From assembly GCA_905206805.1 (NCBI GenBank), contig CAJLIR010000002.1:26999-90998 (forward strand): DNA of 64,000 nt, written 5' to 3'. The translations under genes were made by a program, and so were the position numbers. Of the stretch, positions 27,457 through 46,231 are shown piece after piece; position 1 is the first letter of the stretch, and the number at the start of each line of letters is the position of its first letter. This stretch comes from an uncultured Bacillales bacterium. GTDB taxonomy: Bacteria > Bacillota_I > Bacilli_A > RF39 > UBA660. The notes under the pieces are model-generated. The model saw only the letters and a list, made by a program, of their open reading frames with translations. It searched no databases and was not told where the DNA came from.

Positions 27457-28700
27457 ATGTTTGTAAAAGATTATCATAGAAGAATTAAAATTGTGTTAGT
27501 AGTAATTATTTTGTTATTTATTTTAATTATAAGTAAAATATTTTATATTCAAGTATTTAGTTATAAAAAACTTAATAATTATGCTAACAGTTTATGGAGT
27601 AGAAACTTACCAATAGAAGCAAATAGAGGAATAATTTATGATAGAAATGGTGTTGTAATTGCCGATAATATTACGACAACATCACTTGTTCTTATTCCAA
27701 ATCAAATTGAAGATAAGGAAGATGTATCAAAAAAATTAGCAGAAATATTAAATGTAAGTTATGAAGAAATGTATGCACATGTTAGTAAAAAAACTTCTAT
27801 AGAAAGGGTTCATCCAGAAGGAAGAAGACTTTCATATGAGGTGGCCGATAAAATTGCGTCATTAAACCTTGATGGTGTCTATTTAGTTAAAGAATCCAAA
27901 CGAAATTATCCTTTTGATACATATTTATCTCACACAATTGGGTTTGTCGGAATAGATAATCAAGGATTAAGTGGACTAGAACTTATGTATAATAATGTTT
28001 TAACTGGTGAATATGGAGCAATAAAATATTTTAGTGATGCTAAAGGTAATAGATTAAGTTTAAATGAAGTTTACGAAAAACCTCAAGATGGAATTAATAT
28101 GACTTTAACTATAAATATGGATATTCAAAGTTCTTTAGAAAGAGAATTAGATAACGCAATGTTAAAATATAATCCTGATCAGGCTCTTGGAATTGTAATG
28201 GATCCAAAAAGTGGCGAAATTTTAGCAATTTCAGCAAGACCTAATTTTTCTCCTAGTAATTATCAAAATTATACAGTTGAAGAAATTAATAGAAATTTAC
28301 CAGTTTGGATGACATATGAACCAGGATCAACTTTCAAAATAATTACACTATCAGCATCATTAGAAGAAAAAATTGTTGATTTGGATAATGATACATTTTT
28401 TGATTCAGGTGCAATTACAGTTGATAATGCAACACTTCATTGTTGGAAACATGGAGGACATGGAGCTCAAACATATTTGCAGGTTGTAGAGAATTCTTGC
28501 AATCCGGGGTTTGTTAATTTAGGATTAAAATTAGGTAAAGAAAAATTGTTTGATTATATAAAAAAATTTGGTTTTGGAACTAAAACGGGAGTTGACCTAA
28601 ACGGTGAAGGTTCTGGAATAATTTTTAATTTGGATAAAGTAGGCAATGTAGAACTTGCAACAACTGCCTTTGGTCAAGGAGTAAGTGTGACACCTATACA
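27457..28700 (+). CDS. spoVD: SpoVD-type class B penicillin-binding protein, 5' segment (interrupted; the as-integrated ORF runs 4 more codons to the stop at 28713)
   Basis: WSRNLP and the PBP dimer domain. SxxK = STFK and SxN = SCN are present. Ends ...ATTAFGQGVSVTPI, then reads HLTV* into foreign DNA. Confidence 0.9.
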
Positions 28701-28720
28701 CCTTACTGTCTAATAAATGA
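28696..28720. repeat. attL: junction repeat ATACA plus element-terminal inverted repeat GTCTAATAAATGA
   Basis: ATACA at 28696-28700. The 13-mer at 28708-28720 is the exact reverse complement of 45549-45561. Confidence 0.8.
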
Positions 28721-28809
28721 TATCACAAAAATCACTAGAGGAATAAGTAGTAAATATACTAAAAAGTATGATGTTAGGTTTAATTATAATTGTTTTGTAG
28801 AAATATAAA

Positions 28810-28859
28810 ATGTTACTTTTAAAATTAAAATACCAAAATAATAATTAGAAAAGTAACAT
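28810..28859. terminator. Hairpin (11 bp perfect stem, 28 nt loop)
   Basis: ATGTTACTTTT ... AAAAGTAACAT. May insulate the cargo from read-through from the spoVD 5' fragment. Confidence 0.3.
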
Positions 28860-28876
28860 AAATATAATAAATTTTA

Positions 28877-28912
28877 TTTTTTTAGGAATTTTAATTAGTT
28901 TTTCCTAAAAAA
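28877..28912. terminator. Bidirectional terminator-like hairpin
   Basis: TTTTTTTAGGAA-13 nt-TTCCTAAAAAA, with A/T runs on both sides. Confidence 0.4.
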
Positions 28913-28956
28913 TAAAAATGATTTGTTTTAATCGCTATAGAAAAATGTATATGTAA

Positions 28957-28985
28957 TTTACAAAGTGATTAAAGTGTGATATATT
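28957..28985 (+). promoter_or_regulatory. Strong sigma-A promoter of the first cargo operon
   Basis: TTTACA (28957-62), 17 nt spacer, extended -10 TGaTATATT (28977-85). Confidence 0.55.
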
Positions 28986-29023
28986 ATAGGTGTAAATTAT
29001 TCAAAGAAAGGAGTGTGATTAAG

Positions 29024-29089
29024 ATGAAAAATTTACAAGTTATAAATAATGCAGAATTAATCACTACTCCTAATTTATTAAACTTTTAG
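29024..29089 (+). CDS. 21-codon leader peptide MKNLQVINNAELITTPNLLNF
   Basis: GGAG RBS 10 nt upstream. Codons 8-13 lie inside the antiterminator arm. A terminator follows. Confidence 0.45.
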   Translation: MKNLQVINNAELITTPNLLNF

Positions 29090-29140
29090 GAATATTCTTT
29101 TAGATTATAAAATTAATTCTGCATTATGCAGAATTTTTTT
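29046..29140 (+). promoter_or_regulatory. Leader-peptide transcription attenuator (mutually exclusive helices)
   Basis: The 16 nt ATAATGCAGAATTAAT (29046-61, inside the leader ORF) is perfectly complementary to 29112-29127. That segment is also the 5' arm of the terminator AATTCTGCA-TTA-TGCAGAATT-TTTTT (29115-29140). Confidence 0.55.
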
Positions 29141-29157
29141 GTTAGGAGGATATTAAA

Positions 29158-29913
29158 ATGATAATGAAATTAAATATTAATGATAGAACAGCACTAGCTA
29201 TCAAAAATAATACTAAAAGAGTAGAGATTAGAGCAAATAAAGAAAATAGTGAGCATGATTATGGCAAGTTAAGACAAAACGATATTATAGAATTTACTAG
29301 TAATAATTTAGGTGTATTTTATGTTAAAGTTAAAGAGATAAATCATTATAATTCATTAGAAGAACTTTTTACTTTAGAAGGTACAAGATATACAACTTCA
29401 TCTACTAATGATAAAGAAGAAGCAATTAGAAATATTAGTAAACTTGATGGATATCAAGATGCTATTAAGAAAAATGGTGTATACGCTATTCATATAGAAT
29501 ACTTATATAGTGAAAATACTGCTTGGGAAGAATTATATGAAAAGGCAAAGAGTGTTAGAAATCCAAGAAATGTATCAGGTATGATTAGTGCAGGACAAGT
29601 TGGCGCAGCAATATTAACTAAAAATCATAATATTTATACTGGAGTATGTATTGATACAGCTTCAACACTTGGTATGTGTGGAGAGCGAAATGCTATTGCC
29701 AATATGATTACAAATGGAGAAAATGAGATTATTAAACTAGTATGCGTTGATTCTAAAGGTAATGTAGGTTCACCGTGTGGGGCATGTAGAGAATATATGA
29801 TGCAACTTTCTAAGAATAGTAAGGATATTGAGATACTAAAAAATATTGATACTAAAGAAATAGTGAGATTAGAAGAATTAATTCCTGATTGGTGGGGTAA
29901 GACACGTGTATAA
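29158..29913 (+). CDS. ASCH domain fused to cytidine/blasticidin-S deaminase-family domain
   Basis: N-terminal PUA-like ASCH pattern (IKNNTKRVEIR). C-terminal MCGERNAI (CxE) and SPCGACREYM (PCxxC) zinc motifs. ELIPDWWG tail as in small tetrameric CDA/BSD enzymes. Confidence 0.7.
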   Translation: MIMKLNINDRTALAIKNNTKRVEIRANKENSEHDYGKLRQNDIIEFTSNNLGVFYVKVKEINHYNSLEELFTLEGTRYTTSSTNDKEEAIRNISKLDGYQDAIKKNGVYAIHIEYLYSENTAWEELYEKAKSVRNPRNVSGMISAGQVGAAILTKNHNIYTGVCIDTASTLGMCGERNAIANMITNGENEIIKLVCVDSKGNVGSPCGACREYMMQLSKNSKDIEILKNIDTKEIVRLEELIPDWWGKTRV

Positions 29914-29925
29914 TAAACTTAAAAG

Positions 29926-30270
29926 ATGACATTTAGGATAGATGCAGATAAATTAGTTGTTCTTGTTTTAAACGGTAAGAAGACAGCAACAACATCTTTG
30001 TATGAATTTGATAGTTTACCTATAGTAGGTGATGTATCTATACTTACTGATTCAAATAATAATGATATGTGTATATTAGAAACAAAAGAAGTTATTGTAA
30101 CTGAATTTAAGAATATTACTTGGGATTTAGCAAAATTAGAAGGAGAAAATAAATCTTTAGAAGAATGGATAAAAGTTCATATAGATTACTTTAGTAAAAT
30201 AAATACTAATTTTAATGATAATACTAAAGTAATATTTGAAATATTTGAAGTAATAGAAAAATTTAAGTAG
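29926..30270 (+). CDS. ASCH domain protein (YqfB-like)
   Basis: VLNGKKTATTS motif and about 114 aa, typical of stand-alone ASCH proteins. Confidence 0.65.
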   Translation: MTFRIDADKLVVLVLNGKKTATTSLYEFDSLPIVGDVSILTDSNNNDMCILETKEVIVTEFKNITWDLAKLEGENKSLEEWIKVHIDYFSKINTNFNDNTKVIFEIFEVIEKFK

Positions 30271-30285
30271 AAAGGAGAGACAAAC

Positions 30286-39219: not shown

Positions 39220-41187
39220 ATGAGATTTGTTAAATTAGATACTAATGATAAAAATTATTTTAACAATATTAACAAAATTTTTTTAGAAGATGAAACAAGT
39301 GTTATTGTCTTATGTAATAATTCTTATATAACTTATCATTCTTATATTGATTCAGTTAAAGTTGGCTATAATCCAATAATAGAAGAAGATAAGTTGCAAC
39401 AAGATATTAAAGAAATAGAAAATGTTTGGAGTAATAATACTTATATAGATAAACATAGATGGAATTATTTATACAAAGATAATGACAAAGTAATTGATTA
39501 TTTAAGAAGTTTAAATCTCAAAAAAATATACATTACTGGTGAATTATCTAATATTTTATATAGTTATATTAATGTATATGGTAACGATTTTGAGGTAGAA
39601 GTAATTGATTATGATTTAGATATAGTAAAAAAATTAATCGATAATAATGAAATAGTATTAGATACTTGTTTAAATGGATTAAAACTCAAAGAAATACTAT
39701 TTAATAAAAATTTAATAAGTTTAACTAAATTATGTGAAAATGTTGAATATTACTATTTTGTTAAAAAATTATCTAAAAAACTTGATATAACAGTATTTGA
39801 ATTTCCTAGTACTGATGACATAACATCTTTTAGTTTAGAAGAAAGAAAGAGATTAGATAGTAAAATAGGATATATATATTATTTAAGTAAATACAATATA
39901 GACGAAGAAATTACTAAATTATTAAATAGTATTTATGGTGAAAGTTTTATGACAAAATTTTGTGGTTTAGAAAATATTTCTCCTGGTACCATAATACAAA
40001 ATGGAATATGTAGATTAGCTGATTCAAATAATGAATTTTGTAGAACTATCAATGGTAAAAGAGTTACAACAGATAAAAATAGAGATTATGCTTTTGATAT
40101 TAATTTTTTAGGTCCTTGTATGGTATATGGAGTTTTAGTAGATGACAAAAACACTATTCCTAGTTGTTTGCAAAGAATAATAAATGAAAATAATAGAGAT
40201 TATTCTGTTAATAATTATGGATTAAGAGCTATGGAATTTTTTGAACAAGTAAGAATAGCTGATAATATCAATAGTAAACTTAATGATAAATTTATATTTA
40301 TAGTATCTAAGAAAGAAAATGAAGTATTAAAAAGTATGGGATATAATAGTGCTATATCACTTCTTGAATTATATAATTCAGGAGTATTAAAAAATTACTT
40401 TATAGATAAACCGGCACATTGTAATAGTGAAGCTAATGACATGATAGCACGTTTTATTTATGAAAAAATTGAAAAAGAATTAAAGACTGTTGATTCTATT
40501 AATCATACTTTAGCAATAGCTATTCCTAATACTAAAAAAAGAAATATATTTGGTAACAATAGATATTTGAATGAATATTTAGAATTTCTTAAGGGTTTAA
40601 ATATTAATACTAGCAATAATGGTGCAATACTTATGAATTGTAATCCATTTACTTATGGTCATTATAAACTGATAGACTATGCTAGAAAAGAAGTTAATAC
40701 TTTAATTGTAATGGTTGTACAAGAAGATAAATCAAAATATTCTTTTAAAGATAGATATGAAATGGTTAAAGAAGGCTGTAAAGACTTTGAAAATGTAGTA
40801 GTAATACCAAGTGGTAAGATATTTGGTTCATCAATGATATTTCCTGAGTATTTTAATAGAAGTGAATCAACTGATGTATCTCTTGATTTATCAATAGATC
40901 AAGAAATATTTACTCAATATATAGCACCAGTCTTAAATATAAAAAAAAGATTTGTTGGTCAAGAACAAAATGACTACATAACTAGAGAATATAATAAAGA
41001 ACTTAAAAGAAATTTACCACTATATGGAATTGAATTAATAGAAATACCTAGATTTAGAAATATAAATGGTGATGAAATAAGCGCTAAGACAGTAAGAAGA
41101 GCAGTTGAAGAAAATGATGATGAATTGCTTGAAATATTAGTTCCTGAATCTACTTTAAGATTGATAAAAACTAGAAAAATGAAATAA
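39220..41187 (+). CDS. Large protein with C-terminal citrate-lyase-ligase (CitC)-like adenylyltransferase domain; N-terminal ~430 aa unknown
   Basis: NCNPFTYGHYKLIDYA (HxGH-type), FTQYIAPVLNIKKRFVGQEQNDYITREYN, and ISAKTVRRAVEEND follow the E. coli CitC C-terminal domain as I recall it. Confidence 0.6.
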   Translation: MRFVKLDTNDKNYFNNINKIFLEDETSVIVLCNNSYITYHSYIDSVKVGYNPIIEEDKLQQDIKEIENVWSNNTYIDKHRWNYLYKDNDKVIDYLRSLNLKKIYITGELSNILYSYINVYGNDFEVEVIDYDLDIVKKLIDNNEIVLDTCLNGLKLKEILFNKNLISLTKLCENVEYYYFVKKLSKKLDITVFEFPSTDDITSFSLEERKRLDSKIGYIYYLSKYNIDEEITKLLNSIYGESFMTKFCGLENISPGTIIQNGICRLADSNNEFCRTINGKRVTTDKNRDYAFDINFLGPCMVYGVLVDDKNTIPSCLQRIINENNRDYSVNNYGLRAMEFFEQVRIADNINSKLNDKFIFIVSKKENEVLKSMGYNSAISLLELYNSGVLKNYFIDKPAHCNSEANDMIARFIYEKIEKELKTVDSINHTLAIAIPNTKKRNIFGNNRYLNEYLEFLKGLNINTSNNGAILMNCNPFTYGHYKLIDYARKEVNTLIVMVVQEDKSKYSFKDRYEMVKEGCKDFENVVVIPSGKIFGSSMIFPEYFNRSESTDVSLDLSIDQEIFTQYIAPVLNIKKRFVGQEQNDYITREYNKELKRNLPLYGIELIEIPRFRNINGDEISAKTVRRAVEENDDELLEILVPESTLRLIKTRKMK

Positions 41188-41345
41188 ATCTCATTTTTGG
41201 CACTTTAATAACTAGTCTTTTTATGTTATATTTATAATGATGATAATAGAGCTTTTTATTTATAGAAATAAAAACAACAAATTTATAATTAACGATGATT
41301 TATTGAAAATATATGATGTAATTAAAAATAAATGGGAGGTTTTGT

Positions 41346-41741
41346 ATGAATACAAAAATTGTTTTGACTGGAATTTTGAAATCTAATGATGAATTTTTGG
41401 TAGTTAAAAGAAGTGAAAATGATGATTTATATCCAGGAGCATGGGAATTTCCTGGAGGCCACCTAGAAAGTGGTGAAACTTTAAAAGAAGGTTTAAAAAG
41501 AGAATTATTTGAGGAAATTGGGTTTAGTTCAGAATTTGAGCCAATTATTACACATTATTATGATGAAGTAAAAAATAAAAATGATGAATTGATTCATGAT
41601 TTAGAAATTGATTTTATTATTAATGTTAATAAATCAGATGTTAATGTTATATTAAGTGATGAACATTGTGATTATAAATGGGTAAAAAAGGATTCTTATT
41701 TGTTGGATGAATATATTAAAGATAAATTATCAAACATATAA
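41346..41741 (+). CDS. NUDIX hydrolase (MutT-like)
   Basis: WEFPGGHLESGETLKEGLKRELFEEIG Nudix box. Confidence 0.85.
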   Translation: MNTKIVLTGILKSNDEFLVVKRSENDDLYPGAWEFPGGHLESGETLKEGLKRELFEEIGFSSEFEPIITHYYDEVKNKNDELIHDLEIDFIINVNKSDVNVILSDEHCDYKWVKKDSYLLDEYIKDKLSNI

Positions 41742-41808
41742 AATTATCAAATTTTTAAAAATGTATCAAAAAAGTCCAAATTCGTACCAAAAACGGACTT
41801 GATTTGAC

Positions 41809-41880
41809 TTGAATATATTTTGTCAAGTGTTATAATATAGTAAAATATGTGAGAATTATGAAGAAAACTTACATATTTTT
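41809..41880 (+). promoter_or_regulatory. Promoter (TTGAAT-16-TGtTATAAT) followed immediately by a terminator hairpin: about 37 nt transcript unit 1
   Basis: -35 at 41809-14 and -10 at 41831-36. Hairpin AATATGTGAG-14 nt-CTTACATATT plus a T-run, 41844-41880. Confidence 0.4.
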
Positions 41881-41928
41881 ATGACACAAATTGTACATGA
41901 TATTACATGAATTGATCATAAAATGAAC

Positions 41929-42009
41929 TTGACTTGTGCTTGTCAATAGTTATAATAGTGTATAATATGAAAAAATTGTGTGGAGAGGAACTATGTTCTT
42001 CTCTTTTTT
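41929..42009 (+). promoter_or_regulatory. Promoter (TTGACT-16-TATAAT) followed by a terminator hairpin: about 47 nt transcript unit 2
   Basis: -35 at 41929-34 and -10 at 41951-56. Hairpin GAGAGGAAC-TAT-GTTCTTCTC plus TTTTTT, 41983-42009. Shares GACTTG...TTGTCAA..GTTATAATA with unit 1. Confidence 0.4.
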
Positions 42010-42075
42010 ATTTAAAGGAGATGGTTTTATAAATTAAAAAGTATAGGAAGCATATATTTTTAATGATTTTGTTAT

Positions 42076-42153
42076 GAGTGGTCACTTTTATTAAAAAGGG
42101 TAGCCACTTTTTTTGTTGGTATTAAAGGAATATTTATATATGAGTAGCCACTT
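42076..42153 (+). repeat. Three direct copies of a 12-mer (GAGTGGTCACTT, GGGTAGCCACTT, GAGTAGCCACTT)
   Basis: Copies at 42076-87, 42098-109, and 42142-53. Operator or iteron candidates upstream of the RHH gene. Confidence 0.55.
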
Positions 42154-42171
42154 ACTACTTAAAAAGTAGTC

Positions 42172-42191
42172 ATTTTTGCAAGTGCAAAAAT
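42172..42191. repeat. Perfect palindrome ATTTTTGCA-AG-TGCAAAAAT
   Basis: 9 bp arms with a 2 nt spacer, lying between the 12-mer copies. Confidence 0.5.
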
Positions 42192-42314
42192 AGTAATGAC
42201 ACCACCATATTTACTTTATTTTATAAGGTAAATATAAGATTATGGTGGCATTCTCCTTATGCCCATTAAAAATATGCAGAATTTATTACTCAAAGAATAG
42301 CTTAAAAATAGTAA

Positions 42315-42326
42315 AAGTGGCTACTC
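42315..42326 (-). repeat. Inverted fourth copy of the 12-mer (AAGTGGCTACTC = reverse complement of GAGTAGCCACTT)
   Basis: Exact reverse complement of copy 3, 30 nt upstream of the RHH start codon. Confidence 0.55.
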
Positions 42327-42355
42327 ATAATTTTAAGAAAGGAAGGAAAATTTTT

Positions 42356-42550
42356 ATGAGATGTACTGAAAGAACCACATTAAGATTAGATGATAATTTA
42401 AAAACTAGAATTAGGCTTTTATCTATTAAAAATAATTTTAGTATGAATAAAATGTTTATCTATTTATTAGAGCTAGGTTATAGATCTTATATAGAAAGAT
42501 ATGAAAAAGATTATGAATTTAAAATGGAAGGAGGAAAAATATTATGGTAA
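42356..42550 (+). CDS. Ribbon-helix-helix (CopG/Arc-like) DNA-binding protein
   Basis: AAGGAAGGA RBS. TTLRLDDNLKTRIRLLSIKNNFSMNKMFIYLLELG has a beta-strand/helix/helix pattern. The longer track ORF starting at 42242 is rejected. Confidence 0.65.
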   Translation: MRCTERTTLRLDDNLKTRIRLLSIKNNFSMNKMFIYLLELGYRSYIERYEKDYEFKMEGGKILW

Positions 42551-42873
42551 TAAGAACAGAAAAACTTACTAATTATACGAAGATTGATAACACTTATTTA
42601 GAAGATAAAAATATATCTTTAAAGGCAAAAGGATTATTAACTTTAATGTTATCTTTACCTGATGTATGGAATTTTAATATTAATGGTTTAAGACTTTTAT
42701 GTAAAGAGAGTAGATTAGCTATTACTAATGCACTAAAAGAATTAGAAGAAAATAGATATTTAATTATTGAAAAAGGACATTCTAAAGATGGTAAATTTTT
42801 ATATAACTATATTGTTTATGAAAAACAATATACCCAAAAAGTACACACTGAACAACCATATATGGATAATTAG
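42544..42873 (+). CDS. Winged-helix/HTH protein of the plasmid/phage replication-initiator N-terminal type (RepA_N/DnaD-like)
   Basis: YTKIDNTYLEDKNISLKAKGLLTLMLSL...ITNALKELEENRYLI pattern. Translationally coupled to the RHH gene. Looks C-terminally short. Confidence 0.45.
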   Translation: MVIRTEKLTNYTKIDNTYLEDKNISLKAKGLLTLMLSLPDVWNFNINGLRLLCKESRLAITNALKELEENRYLIIEKGHSKDGKFLYNYIVYEKQYTQKVHTEQPYMDN

Positions 42874-43127
42874 ATAGTATAAATAACTTAAAGATTAATA
42901 AAGTAAAACAAATATAAAATAGATAAAACAAAAAAATTATTATTATTTTTATAAAAAACTCTTGCAAAATTTATTTTTTTAAGTGATAAATATTAAAACT
43001 AAATTTTAATTTATTGATGCTTAATATAAGAAATAAGAGACTTTAATATTAATCTTAATCAGTTATTAGTATAAAAAATAAAGTCTCTTAAAATGACTTA
43101 AATTGAAAATGAAGGAGTGTGTTTGAT

Positions 43128-43553
43128 ATGTATTTAAAAAATACAAGTAATGAAGAAAAAGAATTAGTTATAAAAATAAATGAACTTGATAGAGATGATA
43201 AACTAAAATTTATTAATTATATTTTTGATTTATGGGATAAAAATCAAATTAATAGTTTGAATGAGGTTAATCCTAATTTACTTGATGATGGTATAGATAT
43301 AGAAATATTTAATCCGAGTAGTATTGATTATCGTTATTTAGTAATTGAGAATAAAGAGTATTGTAACTATACTTTTAATCTTTATCGTCTTTATCCAAAA
43401 GAATATAAAGAATTAATACCAGTGTTTGAAAAATTATCATTTAAAGAAAAGAAAGATACACTTGCAGAATTATTCTTGATATTAGGACATGATGAATTAT
43501 TACCTGATAATATTGATGGCTATGAAATAGCTAGAAAAATTATAAAATATTAA
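43128..43553 (+). CDS. Hypothetical protein
   Basis: GAAGGAG RBS. No motif recognised. Confidence 0.45.
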   Translation: MYLKNTSNEEKELVIKINELDRDDKLKFINYIFDLWDKNQINSLNEVNPNLLDDGIDIEIFNPSSIDYRYLVIENKEYCNYTFNLYRLYPKEYKELIPVFEKLSFKEKKDTLAELFLILGHDELLPDNIDGYEIARKIIKY

Positions 43554-43720
43554 TAATAAAAAACTAAATTGTTATTTGAAAACTTAATTTATTTCAAATG
43601 ATGATTTAGTCTAATTTTGTCCTTTGTGGTATTTAAGTTTTCAAATTTTTTGTAGAACTTAATACCTTAAGTTCTTTTTAAGTTTTTATAAAAATAAACT
43701 TAAAAGAAAGGACAAAGTAT

Positions 43721-43927
43721 ATGGAAAGCATGAATAAAGTTCCATCAAAAATTATTGAAATAGAAACAAGTATTAAATTACTTGAATATTTAAAAAGAAA
43801 TAATACTATTGATGATGGAATGTATAATTTTTGTATTAATAAATTGTTACATAAAATAGAATTTGAAAAGCAAAAACAAGATGATAAATATATAAATGAT
43901 TTAAACAATTATAAACTATTAACTTAG
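43721..43927 (+). CDS. Small (68 aa) protein immediately upstream of the recombinase; recombination directionality factor candidate
   Basis: Position only, 11 nt before the recombinase start. No motif recognised. Confidence 0.35.
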   Translation: MESMNKVPSKIIEIETSIKLLEYLKRNNTIDDGMYNFCINKLLHKIEFEKQKQDDKYINDLNNYKLLT

Positions 43928-43938
43928 GAGGTGTGATT

Positions 43939-45588
43939 ATGGACTTATATATAGTTAGGAATAATATTATGAAAGGTGTTCCGTTACAAGAATTAAATTT
44001 AAGAGTATGTTTTTATGCCAGAGTATCAACTGATAAAGATGAACAATTACATTCTTTACAAAGTCAAATATCTTTCTTTAATGATTATATTAGTAAAGTT
44101 CCTAACTGGGAATTTATAGGTTCATATATTGATGAAGGAATATCAGGTACACAAGTTAAAAAACGTGAAGAATTTTTAAGAATGATAGAAGATGCTAAAA
44201 GGCATAAGTTTGATTTAATCTTAACTAAAGAAATATCAAGATTTTCAAGAAGTACACTAGATAGTATTAAATATACACAAGAATTATTATCAAATGGTGT
44301 TGGTGTATATTTTCTAAATGATAATATTAATACGATATTACCTGATTCTGAACTTAGACTTACAATGATGTCTTCAATTGCTCAAGATGAAGTAAGAAGA
44401 CTTTCTGAAAGAGTTTCATTTGGGATGAAGAGAAGTATTGATAATGGTGTAGTGTTAGGATGTTCTAATATTTATGGTTATGTAAAAGATAAAGGAAAAT
44501 TAGTAATCGTTGAAGAACAAGCAAAAATGATTAAGATAATATTTGATAGATATGCTAATACTACTGATGGATTATCTAAAGTATCAAGATATTTATATAG
44601 TTTAGAATATAAGAGCAAAACTGGTAAACGAATAGATACTACAATCCTTACAAGAATTATAGAAAATCCTAAATATAAAGGATATTATTGTGGACATAAA
44701 TCAAAGGTATTAGACTATCGTACAAAACAAAAGAAAAGATTAAATGAATCTGATTGGATAATATATAAAGATTATGATAATGTTCCACCAATAGTATCTG
44801 AAGAACTATGGGAACGAGCTAATATTAAACTAAAGCAACGACAAGATAGTTTTACAAATCGTGCAGTTAATAAAGCAGTATTTCAAAATAGATATACATA
44901 TTCAGGAAAAATATATTGTGGTTGCCATAATTTAACTTATCATAGATCAAGTGCGGGAAAAAGAAAAAATAATCCTGTATGGGAATGTCAAGTATATCGG
45001 AAAGAAAGTTTAAAAGGGTGTTCAAATCCTAGAGTATTTGAACTGGAACTTGATGAAGTTTTTAAAGATATGTTTAATAAATTATTTAAAAGAAGAAATA
45101 ATATCTTTGATGAGATATTAAATGAATGTAAGAATTATTTAGAAACTAATAATAATGATATTGAAATAAAAAATATTGAATCTAAAATATCAGTTTTAAA
45201 TAATAAAAAAGATAAATTATTAGAACTAGTTATGGAAGAATACCTATCTAAAGAAGATTACAAAAAACAAGTTGATTTAATAAATGAAGATTTAGTTATT
45301 TACCAAAGTAAAATGAACGAATTAAAAAATAATAAGAAAGATAAAAATTATATAGAAAATAAAATTAATGAAATTAAAATTTTATTAGAAAAATGCTTAG
45401 ATGATGATAAATGTTATAGTGATGTATTTAATGAAATAATAGATAGAATAATAGTTTATAAAGAAAGTGAAAAACAAATTAAATTAGATATTTTTATTAA
45501 GACAGGAGAAAGTATAAATACACTTTCTAATAATTTAGGTAAAAAGTTTCATTTATTAGACCTCAATACAACAAATAACTGCTGTTAG
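43939..45588 (+). CDS. Large serine recombinase
   Basis: AGGAGG RBS. RVCFYARVSTDKDEQ..SLQSQ catalytic Ser region, resolvase domain, recombinase domain, Cys-rich zinc ribbon (YCGCHNLTYH...WECQ), and coiled coil. The stop lies 16 nt beyond the crossover, inside spoVD DNA. Confidence 0.9.
   Translation: MDLYIVRNNIMKGVPLQELNLRVCFYARVSTDKDEQLHSLQSQISFFNDYISKVPNWEFIGSYIDEGISGTQVKKREEFLRMIEDAKRHKFDLILTKEISRFSRSTLDSIKYTQELLSNGVGVYFLNDNINTILPDSELRLTMMSSIAQDEVRRLSERVSFGMKRSIDNGVVLGCSNIYGYVKDKGKLVIVEEQAKMIKIIFDRYANTTDGLSKVSRYLYSLEYKSKTGKRIDTTILTRIIENPKYKGYYCGHKSKVLDYRTKQKKRLNESDWIIYKDYDNVPPIVSEELWERANIKLKQRQDSFTNRAVNKAVFQNRYTYSGKIYCGCHNLTYHRSSAGKRKNNPVWECQVYRKESLKGCSNPRVFELELDEVFKDMFNKLFKRRNNIFDEILNECKNYLETNNNDIEIKNIESKISVLNNKKDKLLELVMEEYLSKEDYKKQVDLINEDLVIYQSKMNELKNNKKDKNYIENKINEIKILLEKCLDDDKCYSDVFNEIIDRIIVYKESEKQIKLDIFIKTGESINTLSNNLGKKFHLLDLNTTNNCC
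45549..45570. repeat. attR: element-terminal inverted repeat TCATTTATTAGAC plus junction repeat ATACA
   Basis: The 13-mer at 45549-61 is the reverse complement of 28708-20. ATACA at 45566-70. Confidence 0.8.
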
Positions 45589-46231
45589 CGCTGCAATAAA
45601 TGGTGGATATTTATATAAGCCTTACATTGTTAAAAGTTTAAATGAACCTGAAACTAATACTATTATTAAACAAAACGATAAACAAATTGTAAGAAAAGTT
45701 ATAAGTGAAGAGACAAGTGAAAAGGTTAGATATGCTCTAGAGAGTGTTGTTTCAAACGGTACAGGAAGACCAGCGTATATAGATGGATATAGAGTTGGAG
45801 GAAAAACTGGTACTGCTCAAAAAGTTAAAGATGGAAGATATATGGTAGGTAACTACATTGTGTCATTTATAGGATTTCTTCCTGCTGATGATCCAGAAGT
45901 GATTGTTTATATTGCAGTTGATAATGCTAAAGGTGTTACGCAATATGGAGGAACTATTGCGGCACCAATTGCGAAAACTGTTTTAACTGACGCTATAACA
46001 GCTTTACATATTGATAAAAGAAGTGGCAGTACTGAAAAAAAATACAATTATAATGATAAAAAATATGTTGATGTTGCTAATGTAGTTGGAATGAGTAGAA
46101 ATGAAGCAATTAAAGCACTGAAATCATTTAAAGTTGAATATACGGGTACAGGTGAAAATGTAACTTATCAGTCTCCTGCAGCTGGAGAGCGAATTTTAGA
46201 AGGTGAAACAGTAAGATTATTATTAGAGTAA
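45571..46231 (+). CDS. spoVD: SpoVD-type PBP, 3' segment (no own start; in frame with the 5' segment after excision)
   Basis: (Q)QITAVSAAINGGYLYKPYIVK, GGKTGTAQK (KTG motif), and one C-terminal PASTA domain (VANVVGMSRNEAIKAL...). The frame is open from the junction. Confidence 0.9.

Follow-up and report, generated by a model that had tools for sequence, protein, structure and literature searches.

A conserved leader ahead of a mobile ASCH-deaminase operon in uncultured gut Bacilli as a probable member of the ribosome-sensing transcription attenuators

The leaders of bmrB and lmo0919 are antibiotic-responsive attenuators in which translation of a short upstream peptide governs the gene behind it. 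Together with other leader-peptide attenuators of the Firmicutes (Listeria hflXr and msrD; PMC6310831, bioRxiv 10.1101/2021.11.29.470318), bmrB-bmrCD and Listeria lmo0919 follow a plan where a short leader lies 5' of an intrinsic terminator, a stalled ribosome gives rise to an antiterminator and the downstream gene counters the drug. In the vmlR leader of Bacillus subtilis, an anti-antiterminator hairpin with an upstream open reading frame (uORF) is combined with an antiterminator, a terminator and a hairpin that sequesters the Shine-Dalgarno (SD) sequence until it opens in the induced fold; the inducers are antibiotics by which initiating ribosomes are arrested, lincomycin being one of them (PMC9226507). 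Here, we analyse a leader from an uncultured Bacillales bacterium, which lies within a 64,000-nt stretch of contig CAJLIR010000002.1 (the window, to whose forward strand all positions refer) and precedes an operon that opens with a fusion of an ASCH-like and a cytidine-deaminase-family domain. Our findings show a real and conserved leader, not described before, which belongs to a known class, the transcription attenuators that sense ribosomes. In our view, it probably attenuates transcription in a ribosome-dependent manner through translation of its leader peptide, adds further control at the level of translation and allows read-through upon ribosome arrest early in the leader.

The vmlR leader is the closest known system, as both combine an anti-antiterminator with a uORF, an antiterminator, an intrinsic terminator and a hairpin over the main SD. 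The two differ in that there is no sequence similarity between them, that the vmlR uORF has 3 codons rather than the 18-26 found here among terminator-bearing members, and that the vmlR SD is single-stranded ahead of SL-1 whereas here the SD is itself one strand of the anti-antiterminator. Moreover, the antiterminator 5' strand here lies within the open reading frame (ORF) and the ON fold contains an extra 5' helix (P0, see below). Finally, vmlR encodes an ABC-F factor whereas the genes here specify small-molecule-modifying enzymes, and induction by arrest at the start codon is a prediction from our modelling. The plan of the bmrB, lmo0919, hflXr and msrD leaders would be shared too, albeit with unrelated sequences and other peptide lengths and stall sites; in several of these, drug-specific arrest depends on which peptide is made, whereas our family shows no peptide conservation.

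The leader opens with a promoter (28957-28985) composed of a -35 box (TTTACA, 28957-28962), a 17-nt spacer and an extended -10 box (TGaTATATT, 28977-28985), which scores 10/12 plus the extended TG and is the top-scoring site of the intergenic region. Its position is kept in relatives (TTTACA/TTGACA, N17, TATATT/TATAAT), always 6-8 nt 5' of GTAAAT, and the transcript 5' end is predicted near 28991-28993. SD1, the SD of the leader ORF (AAAGGAG, 29007-29013), lies 10 nt 5' of the ATG at 29024, and its GGAG as well as GTGATTA are invariant in 37 sequences. Together with the following GUGAU, SD1 has long complementarity to the canonical 16S rRNA 3' end, a remark that rests on the textbook sequence because the 16S 3' end of the host, looked for in this metagenome-assembled genome (MAG), was not found. 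The leader ORF itself (29024-29089, plus strand) comprises 21 codons and a TAG stop (29087-29089) and encodes MKNLQVINNAELITTPNLLNF. Within it, codons 8-13 form segment A (29046-29061, AUAAUGCAGAAUUAAU), the antiterminator 5' strand, which is a perfect complement (16/16 pairs) of segment B (29112-29127); when the ORF was shuffled, none of 300 versions attained the observed complementarity to the terminator arm. Segment B in turn holds the 5' arm and the loop of an intrinsic terminator (29115-29140, AATTCTGCA-TTA-TGCAGAATT), whose 9-bp stem (29115-29123/29127-29135) is closed by a UUA loop and followed by a U-tract up to 29140. It is preceded by a U-rich spacer, and its stem starts 25 nt after the leader stop codon. 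Terminator-like sites in the region number two (the same hairpin on both strands) against 0.1 expected in shuffles, and on the plus strand there are just two in 19.5 kb, the leader terminator being the sole one from the promoter to 41982. The SD of the main gene (SD2, AGGAGGA) follows at 29144-29150.

Promoter, 21-codon ORF with its ribosome-binding site (RBS), A:B complementarity and a terminator built on the same downstream segment had all been claimed by a first-pass annotation of this DNA and are present as it described them. Its placing of the operon ATG at 18 nt past the T-run holds for the ATG at 29158, but the deaminase gene opens with two in-frame ATGs (29158 and 29164), and the conserved start may be the latter since two relatives, L003 (GCGATAATG) and L060 (TTAATG), lack the first ATG and keep the second.

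The predicted fold of 28990-29160 has a free energy of -38.5 kcal/mol (z = -4.3). In this minimum free energy (MFE) fold the strand that includes SD1 (29010-29022, GGAGUGUGAUUAA) pairs as helix P1 with an anti-SD mimic inside the ORF (29057-29070, UUAAUCACUACUCC, codons 12-16; read as UUAAUCAC-U-ACUCC). Because this P1 3' strand overlaps segment A by 5 nt (the last five of A), P1 qualifies as the anti-antiterminator. The terminator-bearing (OFF) fold is underpinned by a basal helix between AAUAUUCUUU (29091-29100), which begins 2 nt past the leader stop, and GGAGGAUAUU (29145-29154) of the main SD. A further helix, P0, was returned by a repeat finder (13 nt, 92% complementary) and joins the extreme 5' end of the transcript (28991-29003, UGUAAAUUAUUCA) to the UG of the start codon plus codons 2-5 (29025-29037, UGAAAAAUUUACA), so that SD1 sits in its loop and the start codon in its stem. 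Constrained folding of 28992-29136 gave -29.0 kcal/mol for P1 plus terminator and -28.8 kcal/mol for P0 plus the 16-bp antiterminator; in these models, both folds are isoenergetic and P0 belongs to the ON fold. SD2 is unpaired at 1% in the terminator fold as opposed to 75% with the antiterminator enforced (a longer RNA, in silico). Given two equally stable folds and the masking or opening of SD2, we regard the element as a two-state switch acting on transcription as well as translation. Prediction of RNA folding had been put forward as a check by the first-pass annotation, in which P1 with the leader's own SD, P0, main-SD masking and the mobile-element context (see below) were all absent. An inverted repeat that surrounds the promoter at the DNA level (TAATTTACA/TGTAAATTA) is missing from relatives with a TTGACA -35 box, and we treat it as a by-product of P0.

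The leader is present in about 60 loci of small-genome gut Bacilli (loci are numbered with an L prefix hereafter). Full-length homologues of the first regulated protein (251 amino acids) occur in many gut Bacilli MAGs (CAG:822, CAG:710, CAG:914, Candidatus Faecimonas, Candidatus Onthocola; NCBI taxonomy lists Faecimonas as Bacilli incertae sedis), and conservation of the leader structure at homologous loci, which had been named as another check, is borne out by the same leader with an intact 18-24-codon ORF at about 40 of 47 of them and by covarying helices. A search with covariance model R1, which was built from the SD1-to-P1 part, placed the leader in 42 of 401 genomes of the order, all from one family, and detected a second clade of the same architecture but with other sequence in two further families of the class. 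Weak matches of the covariance model (E 1e-3 to 1e-2) include real members (L159, L160, L161, L165) as well as false positives, namely ordinary gene starts or coding sequence (L151-L157, L162-L164), which were discarded.

Across 37 distinct sequences, P1, terminator and anti-SD helix taken together are 93% paired compared to 38-51% for slid controls, with 8 double-changed pairs; the terminator alone reaches 96% (3 double-changed pairs) and the anti-SD2 helix 86% (3 double-changed pairs). For A:B, 92.5% pairing contrasts with 27-46% in slid controls (37 sequences). With 49 distinct sequences, P1 has 94% of cells paired against 28-52% in slid controls, 5 double-changed pairs and, on four of five measures, 0 of 500 shuffles matching the observed value, in an alignment that was fitted to the covariance model and hence is biased towards structure. 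Complementarity of A is kept at 10-19 nt in each clade, though via different sequences, the pairing being alike in three clades: A, terminator 5' arm and terminator 3' arm show three-way compensation, from the window-type GCAGAAUU/AAUUCUGC/GCAGAAUU to GUAGGAUU/AAUCCUGC/GCAGGAUU in L064, GCAAGAUU/AAUCUUGC/GCAAGAUU in L134 and L136, and GAAUCAAU/AUUGAUUC in L135, and in clade 2 the antiterminator pairs UAAAUUAGAAGU with ACUUCUAAUUUA. Compensation in P1 is seen as GGGU/ACCC (L057), GUGAUGGAU/AUCUAUCAC (L133), GGAGAAUGAU/AUCAUUUCUCC (L135) and GUGAUCAAA/UUUGAUCAC (L159, L165). For P0, there is no covariation in the alignment of close relatives, where both arms are simply invariant, so its support comes solely from distant subclades, between which GUAAAUU/AAUUUAC is replaced by UUGUAAUU/AAUUACAA (L137, L140, L141), GUAAUUAA/UUAAUUAC (L159), GUAAUAUU/AAUAUUAC (L161) or GUGUAAC/GUUACAU (L165), and GUAAUU/AAUUAC also counts among the compensated forms. 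A natural deletion supports the repeat structure of the leader: in L045 (L045:2099-2170), the leader AUGCAGAAUU is joined to the identical repeat in the terminator 3' arm (the repeat in the leader being ATGCAGAATT), with loss of the remaining ORF, the spacer and the terminator 5' arm, an arrangement that is presumably constitutive. Thus, the proposal that the two helices are mutually exclusive and that ribosome position decides between them, also made by the first-pass annotation, is strongly supported by comparative data. A search of 28600-29300 against Rfam 15 with E up to 10 gave chance-level matches only (mir-384, DUF805b; E about 6), and we found no description of this leader family in the literature searched.

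Clade 2 (L142-L150, families f18 and f10 of the same class) carries the leader motif ..KLEVI.. and has UAAAUUAGAAGU as segment A. A second mini-ORF often follows 3' of its terminator (e.g. MKQITLKRKEVSYY), and the genes behind these leaders are XRE-like, GNAT-like or encode a 460-amino-acid protein without assignment.

How the ORF varies among members bears on what the element senses. SD, start codon and ORF are retained in every member, the ORF having 18-26 codons where a terminator is present and 14-18 in terminator-less variants. The distance from the AUG to the RNA word UUAAUC falls into classes of 30, 33, 36, 39, 42 and 51 nt, joined by 40 nt in a single subclade, whose members read the other open frame; the third frame (with UAA inside UUAAUC) is used by no member. 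Between stop codon and terminator, by contrast, we count 16 distinct spacer lengths with a mod 3 split of 7/6/3; hence indels in the ORF keep the frame and those in the untranslated spacer do not, and in L067 a -1 and a +1 change 10 nt apart restore it. This pattern points to a leader ORF that is probably translated. Most members read the word as L-I-T, and L134, L136, L137, L140, L141 and L159 read it as N-H, S-H or D-H; since one RNA word is thus read in two frames, the leader peptide is not conserved. What appears to be selected, judging from these alignments, is the path of the ribosome from SD1 over A and the P1 3' strand rather than a given peptide. No single codon is repeated in a run at a set position, and the C-terminal tail differs between members, with 2-8 codons of variable sequence 3' of the P1 3' strand; from the ORF end to the terminator stem, the family has 14-45 nt.

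These data also speak to a switch that binds a ligand or protein and toggles between P0 plus antiterminator and P1 plus terminator, with an ORF that is incidental or modulatory. Two isoenergetic four-helix folds, conservation of RNA sequence rather than peptide, and an SD and start codon inside helices (as in many riboswitch expression platforms) would suit such a switch. Yet an incidental ORF sits badly with an SD, start codon and frame kept in all members, in-frame indels next to a spacer free of that constraint, and a UAA-containing frame that is never used; nor did we see a conserved unpaired pocket resembling a ligand site or an Rfam match even at E = 10, and the heterogeneous downstream genes argue against a single metabolite, all of which makes this option improbable to our minds. 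Still less credible, indeed the least of those considered here, is a separate gene for a small protein, equipped with a promoter and terminator of its own, the operon being served by leaky read-through or another promoter. Promoter, SD, ORF and terminator do form a complete unit, but beyond the close clade the peptide is no longer conserved, two reading frames being in use, the ORF embeds the complement of its own terminator and covaries with it, and 18 nt between U-tract and main ATG leave no room for a promoter.

To relate fold to ribosome position we used a footprint model, in which a ribosome-sized stretch of RNA is blocked at each codon in turn and pairing probabilities are computed (at equilibrium and pseudoknot-free). 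For the window sequence, the terminator has a probability of 0.85 without a ribosome and of 1.0 with the P-site on codons 5-15, while the antiterminator reaches 1.0 with the P-site on codons 1-3; with the stop codon in the A site, the terminator is again the predicted fold. Among 21 diverse members modelled, 17 have an early ON window (P-site on the first one to four codons), and in 17-18 the terminator prevails when no ribosome is present. In all members the first nucleotide of segment A lies at least at +19 relative to the AUG, just beyond the +16 toeprint reported for an initiating ribosome on the vmlR uORF (PMC9226507). The state that induces read-through, which the first-pass annotation held to be undecidable from sequence, can thus be narrowed down, as modelling now favours arrest on the first leader codons.

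From this we propose the following mechanism. Transcription would start near 28992 and yield an RNA able to take two folds of equal stability, between which ribosome position on the 21-codon leader would select. In the OFF fold, P1 would pair the SD1 region with codons 12-16, the terminator (29115-29135) would form and the basal helix would mask the main SD; in the ON fold, P0 would pair the 5' end with codons 1-5 and the 16-bp A:B helix (29046-29061/29112-29127) would form, destroying the terminator and freeing the main SD. Naked RNA at equilibrium would be found mostly as P1 plus terminator, and an elongating ribosome over codons 5-15 would cover A and so lead to termination. A ribosome parked on SD1 and the start codon (P-site on codons 1-3) would block P1 yet leave A untouched, so that A may capture B before the terminator 3' arm is made and RNA polymerase may read on into the ASCH-deaminase operon. 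Because a start-parked ribosome opens A while an elongating one covers it, the element would report arrest of early translation. Its natural trigger is most probably a translation inhibitor, and an antibiotic is plausible as inducer. The idea of antibiotic sensing, raised by the first-pass annotation, draws indirect support from the GNAT, APH-type kinase, P-loop and ABC-exporter genes behind leader variants (see below) and from the parallel to the architecture of the lincomycin-induced vmlR leader (PMC9226507).

Several points weigh against this scenario. There is a second ON window in the window sequence (P-site on codons 16-20, antiterminator 0.7-1.0), and 4 of the 21 modelled members lack the early one. 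A pseudoknot in which P1 persists next to an 11-bp A:B helix is conceivable and, as P0 forms first in the course of transcription, read-through instead of termination could be the default in kinetic terms; either way, regulation keeps its sign, with expression when early translation of the leader is impaired and termination when elongation is smooth. Among the closest relatives, the leader is near-identical because the element that carries it is transferred horizontally; this inflates its conservation there, so that divergent members weigh more. As for the antibiotic, none of the regulated proteins attains a curated resistance-gene cut-off. The ASCH protein YqfB hydrolyses N4-acylcytosines (PMC6972931) and tetrameric cytidine deaminases (CDAs) convert N4-substituted cytidines (PMC9897663), and the combination of both domains also fits N4-acylcytidine salvage, for which no antibiotic is needed (PMC6972931, PMC9897663). 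Judged by its domains, the ASCH-CDA fusion could equally inactivate cytosine-type nucleoside antibiotics, and it is the regulatory design that favours antibiotic inactivation over salvage of modified cytidines.

The second ON window suggests the same attenuator might instead be induced by a late pause, with the P-site on codons 16-20, where the ribosome would cover the distal P1 3' strand and leave A free; slow elongation or termination, e.g. through a release-inhibiting drug or stalling at a Pro codon, may be envisaged as causes. The late window recurs in about 9 of the 21 modelled members, and since the anti-SD2 strand starts 2 nt past the stop, a ribosome near the stop would also unmask SD2. 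It is absent, though, from about 12 of the 21 (including L062, L064, L069, L131, L133, L135 and L136), the tail behind the P1 3' strand differs in length (2-8 codons) and sequence, and the model falls back to the terminator with the stop codon in the A site. We consider a late pause rather unlikely, and arrest on the first codons remains our preferred inducing state.

Attenuators of the trpL, hisL, ilvL and pyrBI type likewise have a leader ORF, alternative hairpins and an intrinsic terminator; they differ from our leader, which has no tandem regulatory codons, an ORF that stops short of the terminator and regulated genes that are not biosynthetic. Sensing of nucleotides or amino acids by transcription-translation coupling (UTP as with pyrBI or pyrE, or a classical amino-acid attenuator) could draw on the first regulated enzyme, which by its family would make uridine from cytidine, and on the U-rich spacer before the terminator. 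In a pyrBI/pyrE-type design the ORF would run into the terminator; here 14-45 nt (25 nt in the window) separate its end from the stem, so that a ribosome at the stop cannot cover the terminator, and we exclude that design. A biosynthetic attenuator such as trpL or hisL is excluded too, because no particular peptide appears to be selected and there is no conserved run of one codon, the C-terminal tail being variable and the genes downstream being deaminase, ASCH, GNAT and others. Moreover, the same leader drives GNAT, kinase and exporter genes, and TTNTTT, a NusG-type pause motif, is not enriched between stop and terminator (28 of 48 distinct spacers vs 21.8 expected) and was dropped as a candidate. 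Coupling of this sort thus strikes us as very unlikely, and a ribosome held early in the leader stays the favoured signal.

The first regulated gene (29158-29913, plus strand) encodes a protein of 251 amino acids with an N-terminal ASCH-like and a C-terminal tetrameric cytidine-deaminase-family domain. Its N-terminal half aligns to ASCH over the full domain length at 19.6 bits (cut-off 21.2), the protein matches Pfam dCMP_cyt_deam_1, and the C-terminal half scores 81.7 bits against NCBIfam PRK05578 (cut-off 74) and 1e-12 against PDB 1jtk. Structures of blasticidin-S deaminase match at 3.5e-5 (3oj6) or weaker, so of the earlier label (a cytidine/blasticidin-S-deaminase-family enzyme), the cytidine-deaminase part stands while blasticidin-S deaminase is too loose. 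Because the genome holds a separate Cdd-like gene on another contig, we take the fusion to be an accessory paralogue. The rest of the operon (29926-37118, plus strand) encodes ASCH, Metallophos_2, GNAT, GNAT, an unknown protein, GT2, a weak radical-SAM match, a nucleoside triphosphate (NTP) transferase, NUDIX and a further unknown protein; an earlier description as a deaminase followed by GNATs is right about the two GNATs but passes over the ASCH protein and the metallophosphoesterase that come first. The genes of the operon are tightly packed, gaps or overlaps not exceeding about 100 nt, and terminator-like sites were not found inside it.

The cargo from 29926 to 41741 is rich in enzymes of nucleosides and nucleotides (ASCH, two metallophosphoesterases, two NUDIX proteins, NTP transferase, a deoxynucleoside-kinase (dNK)-like P-loop kinase on the opposite strand and a 655-amino-acid citrate-lyase-ligase/cytidylyltransferase-like protein) and also encodes GT2, the weak radical-SAM match and an alpha/beta hydrolase. 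The other terminator-like hairpin of the element (41982-42004, plus strand, GGAGAGGAAC-TAT-GTTCTTCTCT plus Ts) is located behind the second of the NUDIX genes, where the long transcription unit may end.

Behind leader variants in other loci we find different genes. The GNATs behind L128, L133 and L135 are 69-79% identical to the two of the window operon, an MsbA-like ABC exporter follows L136 and an APH-family kinase L138. L134 and L137 precede a 160-amino-acid P-loop protein, whose best NCBIfam match is the Gar/GrdA gentamicin-resistance ATP-binding family at 33 bits, far below cut-off, and which, compared to the P-loop gene at 37098-37577, has no relation beyond the Walker motif. Stand-alone tetrameric-CDA-like genes are located behind L140, L141, L159 and L165. 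Taken by family, the regulated set looks like small-molecule modification and export.

The variants with a CDA gene only have no terminator, and a near-copy of the P1 5' strand 3' of the ORF pairs with the main RBS region. ermC and cat are translational attenuators, and with their four segments these terminator-less relatives (L140, L141, L159, L165) resemble them: the P1 3' strand pairs either with the SD1 strand or with the downstream near-copy, which in turn pairs with the main RBS region. The window differs in having a terminator, and simple accessibility calculations for the terminator-less variants show no clear switch. In the predicted fold of L165, a ribosome on the leader AUG swaps the RBS hairpin for a hairpin of P1 3' strand and copy, with little change in the accessibility number; in L137, L140, L141 and L159, calculated SD2 accessibility is unchanged by ribosome position, SD2 sitting in a hairpin loop.

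Two further observations concern these loci. An unassigned domain (..YGW.D.N...H......F...Y......E......G.GTCIEQ..) recurs downstream of leader variants, either fused to an APH-type kinase or a GNAT or alone; it makes up the C-terminal half of the APH-like protein of L138 and is found in a 426-amino-acid ORF of L125 and in the first ORF of L160. In L139 (1501-1600) and L158, a leader-like SD and mini-ORF (..NNYFT..NQ..) are followed by ACATGGGGGGGGGG(G)TAGAAA, a run of 10-11 G in very AT-rich DNA that lies about 25 nt from the contig end in L158 and is internal in L139; either phase variation of the tract or an assembly artefact may account for it.

In the window, a 16.9-kb insert (about 28714-45571), which begins with leader and operon, splits a class B penicillin-binding protein (PBP; SpoVD/PBP2B-like) into an N-terminal part with Transpeptidase and PBP_dimer domains (27457-28713) and a continuation (45572-46231) that reads QITAVSAAINGG...GKTGTAQ... 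from 45572. A large serine recombinase gene (43933-45588) occupies the distal end of the insert. The same PBP fragment lies directly 5' of the leader in at least 20 other species, where the host PBP is 64-96% identical and cargo proteins are 90-100% identical. With cargo far more similar than host PBP, and the same PBP junction in at least 20 species, the element is mobile and site-specific. The Tn916 tet(M) leader (orf12) is an attenuator that heads mobile-element cargo as well, and its read-through also drives downstream genes of the element; ours shares the position of a leader-peptide attenuator at the head of mobile cargo and differs in belonging to a serine-recombinase insertion in a PBP gene. 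Between the operon and the recombinase gene 14 kb downstream lie one antisense gene and the terminator-like site at 41982.

Much more speculatively, and at odds we would call long, the leader may be a sensor of parked ribosomes that is induced by any agent holding them at the start, and the mobile ASCH-amidohydrolase/cytidine-deaminase fusion together with the GNATs would inactivate cytosine-type nucleoside inhibitors of the peptidyl-transferase centre (blasticidin S, amicetin, gougerotin). Read-through might even reach the serine recombinase, so that excision of the element and repair of the split PBP gene would become tied to exposure to the drug. If true, this would amount to an unrecognised inducible resistance module of uncultured gut Bacilli.

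As to the family as a whole, the leader is a compact example of how binding of the ribosome alone may be read out, with an SD that is one strand of the anti-antiterminator and folds that are equally stable. Being small and self-contained, it is testable in laboratory hosts and could act as a reporter for what the enzymes under its control act on. For uncultured small-genome gut Bacilli, in which almost no regulation is known, it provides a regulatory RNA family that is well supported and has no counterpart in Rfam. The accessory genes marked by this family encode the ASCH-deaminase fusion, GNATs, P-loop and APH-type kinases and an ABC exporter. Their expression is probably confined to times of disturbed translation, which would make them candidates for inducible drug-modifying or detoxifying functions that resistance catalogues built on homology miss.

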